A DNA stretch of 32,950 bases from Chlamydiota bacterium. Its GTDB lineage: Bacteria; Chlamydiota; Chlamydiia; Chlamydiales; SM23-39. The stretch is from positions 1-32,950 of the forward strand of contig JBEHXF010000020.1 of NCBI GenBank assembly GCA_048498835.1. Direction: 5' to 3'. Made by a program: the position numbers. This document shows, piece after piece, positions 12,001-18,000 of this stretch (the first letter of the stretch is position 1; each line of letters begins with the position of its first letter).

Positions 12001-15000
12001 GAGATCTTGCGCCGCGCGATATCGTCTCTCGCGCGATCTTTTCTGAGATGGTTCGCTCTTCGGCCGATCACCTGTGGCTCGATATGTCTCATAAAAGTAA
12101 ACAATGGCTCGAGTACCGTTTTCCTGCGATTTTTGGCTATTGTTTAGAAATGGGGCACGATCTATCTCTCGATCCTGTGCCCATTGTTCCTGCTGCCCAT
12201 TATAGTTGTGGCGGCATCGCTGTCGATCTGAACGGCTGCAGCACGATTCGGAGATTGCGCGCGATTGGAGAGGTCTCTTGTACGGGGCTTCATGGAGCGA
12301 ACCGACTCGCTTCCACTTCGCTTTTGGAAGGACTTGTTTGGGCGAAAACAGCTAGCGACGATATTTTGGCAACGTGGAATAGCCGAATCGATCTTTTTCC
12401 ACCCGTTGCTGAATGGCAGATGAGCAACGAAAAAGTCGATAAGGCGTTGATTCAACAAGATTGGATGGCGATTAAACAGACCATGTGGAATTACGTGGGT
12501 CTTGTCCGCGATGACAATCGGTTGAGGCGCGCAGATAAAATGCTTCGGGAATTGCGCTATGAAATCGACCAATTTTATGAGAGAGGGGAATTGACTTCAG
12601 AGTTAATCGGCCTTAGAAATGGCGCTCTAACCGCTCTTCTCATTGCGCAGGGAGCTCTGCGCAATCGAACATCACTGGGTTGTCATTATCGCAGTAGTTA
12701 GCCATCGGAGGATCTTGGCGGCTATAGAAAGAGGTTCTTCGACCGGTTTTTGAAGGTGAGGTTGGTTGGTCACTAGGTACACATCTTTGAATAGTTTGGG
12801 GTGGTTCAAATTGAAGTTGCGAAAATCTTGCGGTGTGAGCCATTTTGCATCGTAGGTGTATTGAACCGCTTTGCTCATCTCTTTCCAATATTGAATCCGT
12901 TTCACTCTCGCCCAAACGTCGCGGAAAATGCTCGAACCAATCGAAGTGAAGCCAGTGATCGGACCGTGCTTGTTTCCTAAAATGGCAGGCATAATTTTCC
13001 GGCTCTCGGCCGTTTGGTAGCAATAGCCGACAAAATAAGAGCAGAAAAAGTCTTTCAGGCCGATAAAATCTTTCGGGAGTTGGTTCTTGTGATCGTCGAT
13101 GTATTGCTCTAGGTAACGGTGACGAGCAAAAGGTCCAAAGAAGGAAGGATGATAGATGGAACGACCGGCATGTAGTTCGGTATATTTGTGAGTCGTCTCT
13201 TGAAATCCATCAGGTTTTAATTCTGTGGCAACGCGAGCAGCGACGCGCGCCGCTTCCAGTCCCATTTTTTCATCGGTTGGTCTTGCGATGACGTAGCCGT
13301 TTTTAGATTGCAGAGCGAGAGCGAAGTGCGAATCGGTTAGAGGGATCACTCTCACTTCTGATTTGTCAGGGCTTGGAGAGGCTTCGGCGATTTTGCCATT
13401 TCCTAAATAGATCGCGACATGACTGTATTTAAATCCTTCTCGCTCGACTGGCCCCCAAATGAATGGACGGGTCAATCGTTGTCCTTTGGTGACGAGATGA
13501 GGATTGGTTTCGTGTTGTTTTCGGAAAAAAATATCGCCTGGTTTCAGCCTTTTTTCTAATTCTACAGGATCGTAGGGGAGCACTTCAATGGAGCGGGTTT
13601 TGAATCTCTCGAGCTCTTCCGATGCGGCTTGAATGGCGAATTGATCTTCGTTTGCGGTTTGAATGGAGGCAAAAGCGGGAGAACATTGGAAGTGATGCAT
13701 CAACTCGTGAACTGATTGAATGGTCGTCGGCTTGCCCAGAACGGGATTGAGAATCTCTTTAAAAAGGCGCTGGATGGTTTTAGAGGTAGCTAGAAGGTGA
13801 GGGGAGAGGGCTTTGTTGGAGTGGGAGGTTATTTTTTCGATTAGATGGGAACATGTTACGTAATAACTTTGAGTGTGATCTTGGATGAGGAGAGTTCGGT
13901 CGAATAGGTGCAGAAGCCAGCCGATGGGGCGCCAAATACCTAAGTAAGATACGTCTTTAAAATCTATATTATAATAGAAATTATTAAATACTTGGTTCAT
14001 TTAATATCCATTAATTAACTAAATTGCGATTATTATAACTAATATAAGAATTGGATGGTAGACCCGTTTTGAAGAAGTAGTTGAAGGGATTTCGGCAATT
14101 GCTTAATATAGCTGTGCTTTTAACGTGTATGGGGTGTTAGCTCAGTTGGTTAGAGCGCCACGTTGACATCGTGGAGGTCGGTTGTTCGAGTCAACTACAT
14201 CCCAACCCATCAAAAAAAATATTTGGAATCGAATCTTAAATTGCGCCGCACGGCAGCGGCCCTCTGTTCTGCCGCTATACATGAAATGGTCCCCGGCTCT
14301 GACCTCCTCGGCGGAGGGGAAACTGAGACTGGATTCTTCTATCAATTTTTTTATCCAAAAACCCTCACTACTCAACTTTCCGTTCTGCTCGAAGAGCGAA
14401 TGAGGCAAATCCACCGAGAAAACCGGCCGCTTCGCGAAATGGAAATGGTCGCTTGTAGCGCCAAGGAAATGTTTCAAAAAGCCTACCATGCTGCGGCTGT
14501 GGATGCGTTGGATGAGCTGGCGCCAAAAGAACTAGTGTCGATTATTCGGGTGGGGACATTTTGCGATTTAGCCGAGGGGCCTTTTTTGGGTTCGCTTCGA
14601 GAGATTGGGGCGTTCCAAATTACAGCCCTTAAAGCTCTGGGGGATGGCGAGTACCGAGTAGAGGGGTGCGCTGCCGCTTCGAAAGATGAGCTGAAAGCCT
14701 TTTTAAAAGCGCTTCGCCGCTATGCCGATGAAAATCACCTGACTTTAGGCAATGAGCAAAAGCTGTGGGAAGCCACGGAGACGGGAATTGTGTGGTTGCC
14801 TCGCGGTTTAGAGCTTAGAAGACAGATCATTCAGGTATGTAAAGAAAATTTAGGAAGTGATTCAACGGAAGTCTTTGCTCGCTCGGCGAGTCTTTTGGAG
14901 CAGTATGCGCAGAAGATGGTCAAGAGAGAGGGGAGCTGCCGCCTATGGACCGTGACGGGAATGGGCGCCGATCCAGAAGGGGATATCGGATTATTTGAAG

Positions 15001-18000
15001 ACGCTTGTCAAAGTGAAATTCAACAAACGATTTACTCATCGGAAGAAGAATTCGACGACACTTTATTTTCCCTCTTGCAATCGATCCATAAAACACTTAT
15101 TATTTTAGGCTTTCACGCAGAGCTTTGCCTACGTGGGCGAAGGCTGAATGAAAAAGGCTTGAGAAGGCTCGAGCAAGGATTACTCAAAATGGGCATTAGA
15201 GCCCCTTTTGAAACCGATGAGAAGTCTGCCCCCAGAGCGCAGTGGATCGTCAAGGACGGCTTAGGCCGACCGAGAGTGGCTGCGGAGCTAAAGGTGGAAA
15301 CAACACTGAGTTTGAAGCTAAGTGTTGAAAGAATCCTCGGACTTTTGTTAGAACTGACCCTTGGAAGATTGAACAGGACATTCAAACTTGAGAATCAATA
15401 GAGAAATTCGAGCCGATAAATTGCGCGTCATTACAGAAAGTGGCGAGCAACTCGGAATTTTAACCATTCGCGAAGCGTTGGCAAAAGCTGAAGAGATGGG
15501 TTTAGACCTAGTTGAAATTGCGCCCACGGCAAAACCCCCCGTGGCCAAAATCATCGACTACGGCAAATTCCGATACCACCAAGCTAAAAAGGAAAAAGAG
15601 GGAAAGAAGGCCCAAGTACAGATTAAGGTCAAAGAGATCAAGCTGAAGCCGAACATCGATACGCACGACTTTCAAACGAAAGTCAACCATGCCCGCGACT
15701 TTTTGTCTAAAGGCAACAAGGTGCGCGTAACGATCGTCTTCCGCGGGCGAGAAATGCTCCACATTGATTTAGGACAAAAAGTCGTAGATCAGTTTTGCCA
15801 GGAGCTGGCCGATATCTCTACCTTGGAATCGCCTCCAAAACTAATGGGTCGCGCTATGTCCACTGTTCTTGCCCCAAGTGGAAAGCGGCCAAAACCAGCG
15901 ACTGCCTCGACAGAGCCAGCCGTTAAATAGCAGGAGAATTAGACCGTGCCAAAAATGAAGACCCGAAAGGCAATGAAAGCCAGATTTAAAGTGACCGCTA
16001 CGGGCAAATTGAAAAGAGCTCGTCCAGGACGACGTCACATCTTAACAAAGAAGAGCGCCAAGAGAAAACGTGGCTTAGCAAAAGCCCGCTATGTCGATGA
16101 AGGCCAAGTAAAAATGTATCGTAACTTGATCGGCGCGTAAGGAGTAGGACAACATGGTAAGAATTACAAACTCAGTTGCCGCCCGCAGACGCACAAAAAA
16201 ACTCTTAAAGCGCTGCAAAGGCTTTTATGGCGACCGTAAAAACCACTTGAAACTCAGCAAAGACGCTCTGATGTCTGCGCTGGCGTTTAATTATAAACAC
16301 CGCAAACTGCGCAAGCGCGATTTCCGCAGTCTTTGGATTACCCGTATCAACGTCGCAGCGAAAATCAATGGGATTTCGTACAGCAAGTTGATCAACGGAT
16401 TGAAGAAGATGGGCTGCGAATTGAACCGCAAAGTTCTCTCTGAACTCGCAATTCGCGATCCAGAAGCGTTTTCTTCTCTCGCTAACATGGCGAAACAGAA
16501 ACTCGCTGCATAAATAAGTTATCGGGCAGCTCGTAAGACTGCCCGTTTTTTTTAGGGTGGATTCATGAAGCTATCTGAACAAATTGAGAAACTTCGATTC
16601 CATTTTCTGGAAGAGCTCAAAGTCGCTTCCAATTCAAAAGATCTCGAATCTCTAAAAGTTAAATACCTCGGTAAAAAAGGCCCCGTCACCAATCTCATGG
16701 TTGAGCTGAAAAACTGCTCATCTGACGAGCGCCCCCTTCTCGGTAAACTCATCAACGAATTAAAAGAAGAGCTCGCTCTCCATTGCGACAACAGCCTTGC
16801 CCGTCTGAAAACAGAAGAGATGCAGGCTCAATTCAATCGCGAGTGGATTGATGTGACTCTCCCTGGCCGCCGCCAATCTCTTGGCCGCGTCCATCCAATC
16901 AATCAAATGCTCCAGCGCGTCCTCGACATCCTCATCGGCATGGGCTTTTCCGTGCAGCTCGGCCCTGATGTAGAAACAGATTACTACAATTTCGAAGGAC
17001 TCAACTTCGCCCCAGACCATCCTGCTCGCGACATGCAGGATACCTTTTATCTCAATACTGAATACCTTCTACGGACTCATACGAGCAATGTTCAAGTTCA
17101 CACGATGGAAAACCACAAACCGCCGATCCGGATCATTGCTCCTGGCCGCTGCTTCCGCAACGAAAACATCTCAGCCCGATCCCATGTCTTTTTCCATCAA
17201 GTAGAGGGTATCTACATCGATAAAGGTGTTACCTTTGCCGATCTCATGGCGACGATGGAAGAATTCTTAAGCAAACTCCTCGGCGAAAAAGTGATCACCC
17301 GTTTCCGTCCCAGCTACTTCCCATTCGTTGAACCAGGACTCGAAGTCGATGTTCGATGCACCTCTTGCCGTGGCAAAGGTTGCCGTATCTGCAAACATAC
17401 AGGTTGGCTCGAAATCCTCGGCTCCGGCATGGTCCACCCATCCGTTCTTCGCAAAGGAAATATCGATCCAGAAATCTATACCGGTTATGCGTGGGGAATG
17501 GGAATCGAAAGACTCACGATGCTCTTTGGGGACATTCGCGATATCCGTACCTTTACGCAAAACGATATCCGATTCCTCGAACAATTCCCCTAACACTAAA
17601 AATAGCGGGGAAGCCCCGCACCATCCCACGCGAAGCGGCCGTGCCCGCGCCCGTGTGCGTGCCCGTGCCCGATTCAAAAAATACACCACAGAGAACACAG
17701 AGAATCACCGAGGCAGAGGGAAGCCCTCCGCACCTCCCATCGGGCACGGGCACGGGCACGCACACGGGCACGAAAATGACCGCGAGCTTCGCCGCGGGAA
17801 TAGGCCGCTTCGCGTAATTATGCGGAACGGGCCGCGACGAAGATCATAGCCATTTTTAACGCAGAGACGCAAAGGTGGGAAAGCCCCACACCCCAAAAAA
17901 AGAGAGAATAAAGATCCGCTCCGAGTGCGATTCATCCTTTTCTTGATAGTAAGTCGGTGAACAGGTAAGATTTAGACTCTTTTATGGAAGAGTGGCAGAG

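Follow-up and report, generated by a model that had tools for sequence, protein, structure and literature searches.

A threonyl-tRNA synthetase relative without key active-site residues occupies the ancestral thrS position before infC in Chlamydiota

Why does a chlamydial genome with a complete threonyl-tRNA synthetase (ThrRS) keep a second, ThrRS-derived gene in front of infC? Pseudo-enzymes derived from synthetases are few but informative (HisZ, SLIMP, mL39), and the family that fills this slot would add an inactive bacterial ThrRS relative to them. The window, i.e. the whole stretch of 32,950 nucleotides analysed here, carries one such gene (Table 1). The working ThrRS lies elsewhere in the genome (C28:20515-22437), as a preliminary description of the locus had stated; it is intact, bears a TGS domain and scores 681 bits against TIGR00418.

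The locus and its start codon

The open reading frame had been placed at 14163-15401, overlapping infC by 14 nt and followed by rpmI, rplT and pheS, and this arrangement stands. Two statements about its 5' end do not. About 41 codons were said to overlap tRNA-Val(GAC), while in the 412-aa call the actual overlap amounts to about 15, and translation was thought to begin at Met42 (14286). The latter start is unlikely, and we rejected it, because the helix RTAAALCSAA, homologous to HTSAHVLAQA of ThrRS, is encoded 5' of Met42 and because the start lies at most 20 nt from the tRNA 3' end in 62 of the 81 homologues with a scorable start. Judged from sequence, TTG 14223 is the best candidate, 15 nt past the tRNA's 3' end, with TTG 14241 as a possible alternative; residue numbers of the window protein (M75, S283, R370 etc.) are counted from TTG 14223. 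The tRNA is found at this place in 85 of the 87 chlamydial loci that are intact. An Rfam scan returned tRNAs only, and a promoter and terminator scan gave chance-level signals only.

Table 1. Features of the slot locus, in window positions
Feature	Position	Strand	Remark
tRNA-Val(GAC)	14130..14207	+	directly 5' of the pseudo-enzyme gene; next to thrS in the ancestral arrangement
ThrRS-derived pseudo-enzyme	14223..15401	+	392 aa from TTG 14223
N2 (editing-type) domain, residues ~3-152	14229..14678	+	editing residues gone; M75 family-specific; position 79 is S here
Linker helices, residues 154-178	14682..14756	+	Lys stripe K154/K158/K162
Motif-1 region, residues 183-228	14769..14906	+	W191, G195 kept; predicted homodimer interface
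'SSLQ' helix, residues 274-297	15042..15113	+	behind motif 2
Motif-3 remnant S367-V-E369-R370...E377	15321..15353	+	anticodon domain behind motif 3 deleted in window protein
infC (IF3)	15388..15930	+	TTG start 15388; 14-nt overlap with pseudo-enzyme gene
rpmI (L35)	15946..16140	+	
rplT (L20)	16154..16513	+	
pheS	16565..17593	+	

Fold, lost residues and new constraint

The predicted fold of the window protein (pLDDT 91) joins a ThrRS editing domain to a class II core, in agreement with the preliminary description. The best Foldseek matches were 1qf6 (E 3.6e-26) and 1nyq (TMq 0.69), and structural comparison gave 1tje (Z 22.1, rmsd 1.7 over 152) and 1nyq (Z 21.0). Best matches in sequence and in fold were both ThrRS, and a HisRS ancestry was not found; the ESM Atlas held only ThrRS-like clusters and unnamed Chlamydiota clusters. 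The earlier remark that no Pfam or NCBIfam row covers the protein is correct above the cut-offs but not below them, where tRNA_SAD (E 0.002) and TIGR00418 (thrS; 53.9 bits, E 1.4e-14, curated cut-off 383.65 bits) both align. Two long relatives exceed the TIGR00418 cut-off (450 and 416 bits) yet lack the zinc triad, and are therefore misannotated by score.

With bacterial ThrRS (E. coli 1QF6, S. aureus 1NYQ) the pseudo-enzyme has in common N2, linker, class II core, the motif-1 dimer interface and the ER of motif 3, but it lacks the zinc ligands, the motif-2 arginine, the editing residues and, in the window protein, the anticodon domain. We compared residues of 113 syntenic chlamydial homologues with those of 56 active ThrRS, numbering H71/H75/C176/H180, C328/H379/H506 and R357 as in the genome's own ThrRS. 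The residue losses reported for the window protein were all borne out: the editing quartet reads R/A/A/F, the zinc ligands read gap/T/T, and R357 of motif 2 is replaced by M (R369 by E, F373 by Q). Among the homologues, R357 is kept in 11/113, R369 in 6/113 and F373 in 18/113; zinc ligands number none in 69, one in 44, and two or three in no homologue. All four residues of HxxxH and CxxxH occur together in none of the 113 and three of them in one, and the SGHW histidine (0/113), D377 (0/113) and Q474 (1/113) are found in 56/56 active ThrRS. The window protein retains S-x-E-R of motif 3, as do many relatives (S367 71/113, R370 81/113). The pseudo-enzyme status proposed for the gene thus agrees with residue loss across the whole family: as far as sequence can show it, the old enzyme is without threonine or zinc binding, ATP activation and editing.

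Homologue lengths form a stepwise series from ~600 to ~320 aa, and the shortest forms keep N2 and the linker and have shed much of the core. The anticodon domain is present in 53/113 homologues, with E595 in 53/53 and R604 in 92% of them, and absent from 60/113 and from the window protein. The domain losses described earlier therefore hold for the anticodon domain but not for TGS, which was probably never present in the slot gene because slot ThrRS of the sister phyla lack it. For one long form (P0302), a single-sequence fold prediction reached a pLDDT of 36.

Several residues are common in the family and rare in active ThrRS, namely M75 (110/113 vs 6/56), N79 (72/113 vs 0/56; S in the window protein), K162 (98/113 vs 8/56), S283 (95/113 vs 2/56), S284 (71/113 vs 0/56), Q286 (72/113 vs 4/56) and K290 (77/113 vs 4/56). 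K158 and L285 are also frequent in the chlamydial working ThrRS (11/13 each). Only in the 'SSLQ' helix does conservation within the family (0.38) exceed that of active ThrRS (0.33). Within-family identity is 0.22 in motif 1, where W191 (97/113) and G195 (107/113) persist, and 0.17 in the mid-core, where occupancy is 0.58; no substitute residues are conserved around the former active site. The periodicity of the helices, and the variability of these positions in active ThrRS, suggest that the new residues are surface-exposed, and this gain of constraint would indicate the docking site of a partner; alternatively, the new residues may stabilise a remodelled core.

The canonical homodimer was predicted with a score of 0.71, against 0.00 for the best of three controls. 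Among proteins whose solved structure is a pair, 20 of 30 reached the mark, as did 1 of 23 whose solved structure is a single chain. Contacts agreed between runs by at least 96%, with pLDDT of at least 88. On this model the pseudo-enzyme is probably homodimeric, though the prediction may stem from likeness to solved ThrRS dimers. The named interface comprises residues 183-250, and the new conserved residues lie outside it.

Origin and retention of the slot gene

Is the gene a copy of the working thrS or a remnant of an older one? Active thrS stands before infC in 28/30 loci of the Verrucomicrobiota phylum and 24/25 of the Omnitrophota phylum, as expected of the ancestral thrS slot claimed before, and none of these genes aligns to TGS. 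The slot order tRNA-Val(GAC)-thrS-infC is common to these TGS-less ThrRS and the chlamydial gene, the tRNA lying 5' of active thrS in 14/25 Omnitrophota-phylum loci; the pseudo-enzyme differs in being ~190 aa shorter, with a second, complete ThrRS that does the charging. The window protein aligns to the genome's own ThrRS with 27% identity over 214 columns (E 2e-13), and the chlamydial working ThrRS was the lowest-scoring comparison for 16/16 long homologues. In a tree calculated with the window protein itself left out and with thin outgroup sampling, the working chlamydial ThrRS clusters with Bacillota and one Methanosarcinales record, and the slot family falls beside Verrucomicrobiota with an SH-aLRT of only 84 and long branches. 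A joint clade of both was rejected (p-AU 0.0023). Score ranking, tree and joint-clade test led us to discard a recent duplicate of the working thrS and, with it, the label 'paralogue'; the slot gene is very probably the displaced native orthologue. That an imported TGS-bearing ThrRS took over tRNA-Thr charging in the chlamydial ancestor is well supported. Retention of a native gene after its replacement by an imported enzyme, in many environmental chlamydiae, would be an unusual origin.

In 37 of 39 close pairs of relatives with a computable value, dN/dS is 0.08-0.29, which rejects a neutral pseudogene for these relatives; the pair including the window gene is saturated. In almost every pair the slot gene has a higher value than infC, rplT or pheS. 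Slot genes are transcribed in three cultured chlamydiae (Protochlamydia, Parachlamydia and Waddlia tables), and in Parachlamydia their mRNA tracks infC. Purifying selection, family-specific residues and transcription uphold the retained function postulated before, and we hold with high confidence that a dead enzyme is kept by selection at the protein level. This function is accessory rather than essential, since searches of 36 genomes did not find the slot gene.

Our search matched 360/401 genomes at E<=1e-5, working ThrRS matches included. In the 36 genomes, a 148-row profile returned only the working ThrRS and weak matches to other synthetases; relocation rather than loss is rejected by this result, as the same profile detected the slot gene in 6/6 control genomes. 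Loss is recurrent: the IF3 tree requires at least 13 presence changes, and tRNA-Val lies within 420 nt of infC in 25 genomes (clean deletion). At L094 and L095 the gene is split. Some internal deletions retain the C-terminal tail overlapping infC, and in many loci the gene ends up to ~90 nt short of infC.

Possible roles of the retained protein

We propose that in the chlamydial ancestor the imported enzyme supplanted the lineage's native thrS, which had no TGS domain, and that the old enzyme would have been kept on without catalysis, still folded and probably as a homodimer, as the fold and dimer models predict. New conserved surfaces, i.e. the S283-S284-L285-Q286...K290 helix, M75/N79 on N2 and the lysine stripe of the linker, may serve to bind another protein or a second dimer; the pseudo-enzyme would then work as a scaffold or regulatory subunit in an accessory role, with the logic of HisZ and SLIMP. 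Its role is most likely in translation, because the slot gene continues to lead the tRNA-Val-infC-rpmI-rplT transcript. The new job would not require the anticodon domain or much of the core, and many lineages do without the whole gene. The old gene was probably kept because of a new binding job. By analogy with such subunits, an accessory dimeric scaffold that docks a protein is the reading to which we tentatively lean; a protein rather than an RNA partner is suggested by the frequent absence of the anticodon domain and by a ThrRS-like pI (5.75; family median 6.3). More speculative, and somewhat doubtful, is a single conversion in the chlamydial ancestor into a new non-catalytic protein of the whole order, either a regulator of translation or a subunit associated with the ribosome. 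It would be a bacterial counterpart of mL39 and SLIMP, and its erosion series from 600 to 320 aa and on to loss would survive.

Could the partner be RNA after all? N2 and the lysine stripe would then bind rRNA or tRNA, and the protein would be an mL39-like ribosome-associated accessory factor or a tRNA sensor or chaperone. Indeed, mL39 matches residues 1-165 (Z 16.4, rmsd 2.7, 153 aligned), the three stripe lysines share a single helix face, and the ~320-aa forms keep N2 and the linker. Conservation of E595 and R604, the frequent motif-3 arginine and the position of the gene at the head of an IF3-L35-L20 operon, with mRNA following infC, fit as well. However, the protein is not basic, and the N2 hairpin and the motif-2 loop, which contact tRNA in ThrRS, are eroded along with the anticodon domain. 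The residues with the strongest new conservation (S283, S284, Q286) are small and polar, and the Protochlamydia product was not detected in the published elementary-body proteome, unlike L20 and IF3 (the gene has no new NCBI tag). We consider an RNA partner unlikely.

A heterodimer with the imported ThrRS, formed through motif 1 and modulating or stabilising the working enzyme, has a precedent in the heterodimeric mitochondrial SerRS of metazoans, in which one active site is ablated (available part of PMC10570016), and the motif-1 interface with W191 and G195 is predicted intact. It is nevertheless improbable: family identity is low for the partner of a conserved enzyme, the new residues avoid the named interface, and no residue of the working ThrRS cleanly separated the 40 genomes that have the slot gene from the 35 that lack it. 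IF3 gave no clean switch either, and nominal p-values in both comparisons are confounded by kinship. In all 75 genomes the working ThrRS keeps its own editing and catalytic motifs, with minor editing-motif variants; for this reason, and with HxxxH and CxxxH gone, we rejected a trans-editing factor of AlaX/N2 type. A secreted effector was judged unlikely, because the modelled fold would begin no more than ~10 residues past the start; the EffectiveT3 column reads N for pc0701.

Still less probable is slow decay combined with a role in cis, in which translation of the reading frame couples into the infC TTG start and selection acts only against misfolding or frame breaks. Stepwise erosion, the many presence changes, the tail preserved through internal deletions and starts directly behind the tRNA with a small leader or none are consistent with it. 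Near-invariant residues that active ThrRS do not share and a helix under tighter conservation than its counterpart in the enzyme argue against it, as do the many loci that stop before infC; since clean deletion is tolerated in 25 genomes, 1-1.8 kb would not be required for a role in cis. A new enzyme of the kind that EpmA or AsnA are for other synthetases, using the S367 and R370 still kept in motif 3, is very improbable given the sparse mid-core, the rare motif-2 arginine and F373, and no replacement residues at the old active site.

How does a non-catalytic scaffold compare with known systems? HisZ, which derives from HisRS and is a regulatory subunit of ATP-PRT, is in the available part of PMC9437257 a bacterial relative of class II synthetases that lacks adenylation activity and serves as a subunit. 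It matches the pseudo-enzyme in structure (Z 11.6-12.7) and in having a class II core without adenylation residues, but the pseudo-enzyme is ThrRS-derived, keeps N2 and has no amino-acid site left. A regulator of threonine synthesis acting through threonine synthase seems unlikely, thrC being above cut-off in 0/5 genomes carrying the slot gene. SLIMP/SerRS2 has an ablated active site, a retained fold and a repurposed surface (same part of PMC10570016); the pseudo-enzyme differs in being bacterial and in its origin from displacement rather than duplication, and the working ThrRS appears complete and functions in genomes without it. mL39 is also a non-catalytic protein with the ThrRS N2 fold, but it is devoid of a class II core and carries a TGS-domain annotation. 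Anabaena T2, ThrRS-L/TARSL2 and AlaX/ThrRS-ed stand beside a housekeeping ThrRS gene too, but according to the available parts of PMC9437257 and PMC7373986 they keep aminoacylation or editing, whereas the slot family lost the residues for both.

Those parts of the two reviews list no inactive bacterial ThrRS relative, and our literature search returned no description of the slot family; the main text of PMC9816063 does not mention thrS, and its supplements or subscription papers may record the transfer. Long forms are systematically misannotated as threonine-tRNA ligase in NCBI and JGI. Cultured hosts exist, with Neochlamydia sequences in addition to the slot genes in the three transcript tables.

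Fold and residue loss

We find that the gene in the thrS slot belongs to a real family of synthetase-derived pseudo-enzymes. The AlphaFold2 model of the window protein, built from 33 sequences, is well defined (pLDDT 91.4, pTM 0.83), and its five best Foldseek matches are all full-length ThrRS. In a wide structure search the top match was a ThrRS editing domain (Z 22.1, rmsd 1.7, 152 aligned), with 1nyq next (Z 21.0, rmsd 6.1, 390 aligned), followed by ProRS, AlaX and mL39. Predicted in two copies, the protein would form a dimer via residues 183-250 by a swap of the motif-1 strand, the interface typical of class II synthetases (score 0.71 against 0.00 for the best control; contact agreement between runs at least 96%, pLDDT at least 88, residues not named uncertain). 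Among solved structures, 20 of 30 pairs and 1 of 23 single chains reach the mark applied to this score, and the predicted dimer may pass it owing to its likeness to ThrRS dimers.

The loss of synthetase residues was followed in 113 distinct in-slot sequences, 87 from loci L001-L108 (excluding 7 duplicates, 7 active ThrRS, 3 sequences cut by contig ends and 4 broken frames) and 26 from genomes with weak or no score in an earlier family search (excluding 2 cut sequences and 1 under 45 bits). Compared with 56 active ThrRS, these homologues (317-608 aa, measured from the tRNA end or an upstream stop) have lost nearly all catalytic residues. Neochlamydia WP_158622999.1 is an example of the long forms. 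None of the homologues retains more than one zinc ligand or the full set of four editing residues (0/113), which bears out the loss proposed in the preliminary description; 81 of the 113 still have the motif-3 Arg, and 53 an anticodon domain. Judged by its defining residues, the slot protein is neither a ThrRS nor a trans-editing factor, and the family would appear to be catalytically inactive. Among the broken frames, those at L044 and L067 are likely assembly errors, because neighbouring genes are broken too; L094 and L095 look like truly split genes.

In working logic the slot protein comes closest to HisZ and SLIMP, yet it lies outside both groups. Database names for family members are hypothetical protein or threonine-tRNA ligase. 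We found no account of the family in the literature, including the accessible portions of PMC9437257, PMC7373986 and PMC10570016, and a term search of the main text and one supplement of PMC9816063 gave no match.

Origin, loss and selection

Where does the slot gene come from? An active thrS lies before infC in 28 of the best 30 thrS loci from 41 genomes on the Verrucomicrobiota side (phylum of a Puniceicoccales record) and in 24 of 25 loci on the Omnitrophota side (25 of 31 genomes; phylum of an Omnitrophota record), with tRNA-Val(GAC) upstream in 2/30 and 14/25, respectively. No thrS of these 30 and 25 loci gave an alignment to the TGS domain. A ThrRS over the cut-off is present in 60 of 61 Chlamydiales genomes, and for all 16 long homologues tested the working chlamydial ThrRS gave the lowest score. 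In a tree of 52 rows (20 of 72, including 9 of the 16 homologues, were omitted for speed and branch length; the window protein is absent), the family adjoins Verrucomicrobiota thrS (support 84), and the working chlamydial ThrRS fall among Bacillota records, with a Methanosarcinales record as sister to them all (support 99). A forced common clade of both chlamydial groups was rejected (p-AU 0.0023). Residue W191 of the family also occurs in 18/18 Verrucomicrobiota enzymes and in 0/13 working chlamydial ThrRS. Based on synteny, homologue scores, the tree, the rejected clade and the W191 pattern, the gene in this slot is most probably a native thrS that has been displaced; with branches this long and outgroups this sparsely sampled, its precise sister group and any donor lineage read from the tree are provisional. 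As side observations, the Methanosarcinales record (L331) carries a bacterial-type ThrRS, and at one Omnitrophota-side locus (L232) the tRNA-Val upstream of thrS has a CAC rather than a GAC anticodon.

The gene has been lost repeatedly. Its copies are spread over 32 coded families, and on an IF3 tree its presence and absence require at least 13 changes. Among 60 genomes picked for a weak or no score in the earlier family search, 29 hold a diverged copy and 31 none, and in 25 of the latter tRNA-Val lies within 420 nt of infC. It is also absent from 5/5 genomes of one coded family (f35; 1.0-1.4 Mb), and no relocated copy was found in 36 genomes lacking it. Genomes without the gene have a median size of 1.5 Mb, below the 1.8 Mb of those with it (kin not being independent). 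Some genomes without it (L127, L143, L145, L164) have a tRNA-Val-infC gap of 0.8-1.2 kb, which in the first three contains an unrelated ORF, hydrolase-like in L127. Nine loci (L002, L049, L052, L055, L060, L062-L064, L066) come from records titled Verrucomicrobia or Acidobacteria; as they carry a chlamydial-type IF3 and the pseudo-enzyme gene, these labels probably hide Chlamydiota.

The retained function proposed earlier is upheld by selection in relatives: dN/dS is 0.08-0.29 in 37 of 39 close, non-independent pairs, vs 0.02-0.16 for infC, rplT and pheS. The other two pairs, including that with the window gene, are saturated; four pairs with dS <0.6 gave 0.10-0.26.

Conserved surface, expression and candidate roles

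Mean pairwise identity is lower in the family than in active ThrRS in N2 (0.30 vs 0.51), the linker (0.29 vs 0.57), motif 1 (0.22 vs 0.42) and mid-core (0.17 vs 0.58); only the helix after motif 2 exceeds them (0.38 vs 0.33). M75, N79, K162, S283, S284, Q286 and K290 are specific to the family; K158 and L285 are strongly kept and also common in working chlamydial ThrRS. We tentatively favour a non-catalytic dimer in which these new residues would be exposed, offering the new helix and the N2/linker surfaces to a protein partner. Binding of RNA or the ribosome is an unlikely alternative. A heterodimer with the working ThrRS is less likely still. Decay or a coupling in cis is again somewhat less probable, and new chemistry is very improbable. 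Checks for a partner gave none: neither the working ThrRS nor IF3 covaried cleanly with the slot gene, and thrC, looked for in 5 genomes, was found in none.

Genes assigned to the family via position and annotation, not sequence, are transcribed in cultured chlamydiae according to published tables of three studies. Directly before infC, Protochlamydia pc0701 ('thrS_1') reaches log2RPKM 14.5-15.6 vs 8.9-10.3 for thrS_2; there it has no new NCBI tag and is absent from the EB proteome (PMC5451489). Parachlamydia PUV_RS05920, before infC, has a transcript that tracks infC across stages (PMC7474615), and that of Waddlia WCW_RS04425, before infC, is ~4x the other thrS (PMC6090853). So high a value for pc0701 may stem from a short fragment or from reads of the tRNA precursor.

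Locus, start codon and neighbouring features

Features of the window
Feature	Position	Strand	Remarks
PF06962 methyltransferase	10562-11116	-
442-aa protein	12672-14000	-	between nadB and tRNA-Val
tRNA-Val(GAC)	14130-14207		upstream of pseudo-enzyme frame
Pseudo-enzyme	14223-15401	+	probable start TTG, 392 aa; residues numbered from here
infC	from 15388		start TTG
rpmI, rplT, pheS			in this order after infC
Inverted repeat	17635-17795		just 3' of pheS
tRNA-Ser(TGA) 3' end	18054-18072
First copy	18185-18203		perfect, 19 nt, 131 nt on
Second copy	18420-18438		74%
Four short ORFs	18501-20374	+	142, 124, 133, 141 aa

The gene order agrees with the slot ahead of infC-rplT-pheS and the 14-nt infC overlap described previously. 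Within the genome, the complete ThrRS on contig C28 is the sole other match to the window protein. The start formerly assigned to Met42 is wrong, as it is preceded by the helix that is homologous to HTSAH of ThrRS, and the tRNA covers ~15 codons of the 412-aa call, not ~41. Across 85 tRNA-bearing loci, a median of 40 nt separates the tRNA end from this helix. Scorable starts lie within 20 nt of the tRNA end in 62/81 loci, leaving no visible Shine-Dalgarno room there or in the window (14207-14223), and within 6 nt in 24/81; at L060, L089 and L105 an ATG immediately follows CCA. For the window gene, TTG 14241 is a second candidate start beside TTG 14223. IF3 affects leaderless starts. Since tRNA-Val processing would leave a near-leaderless mRNA at the head of the infC operon, a route for IF3 feedback is possible.

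In most chlamydial loci, whether or not they carry the pseudo-enzyme, the PF06962 methyltransferase, which we take to be YtqB/MnmM-like, is found upstream of tRNA-Val in divergent orientation. The 442-aa protein, with weak NlpC/P60 (E 0.01) and LRAT (E 0.1) matches, is unmatched at the other compared loci, so its gene is probably a lineage-specific insert. The four short ORFs, without significant Pfam match, look like a tandem paralogue set; the first eight residues of ORFs 1 and 2 are identical. The GC-rich inverted repeat, with 37-nt arms of a repeated hexamer, may be a REP-like or other small mobile element, and the repeats of the tRNA-Ser(TGA) 3' end resemble traces left by integration events.
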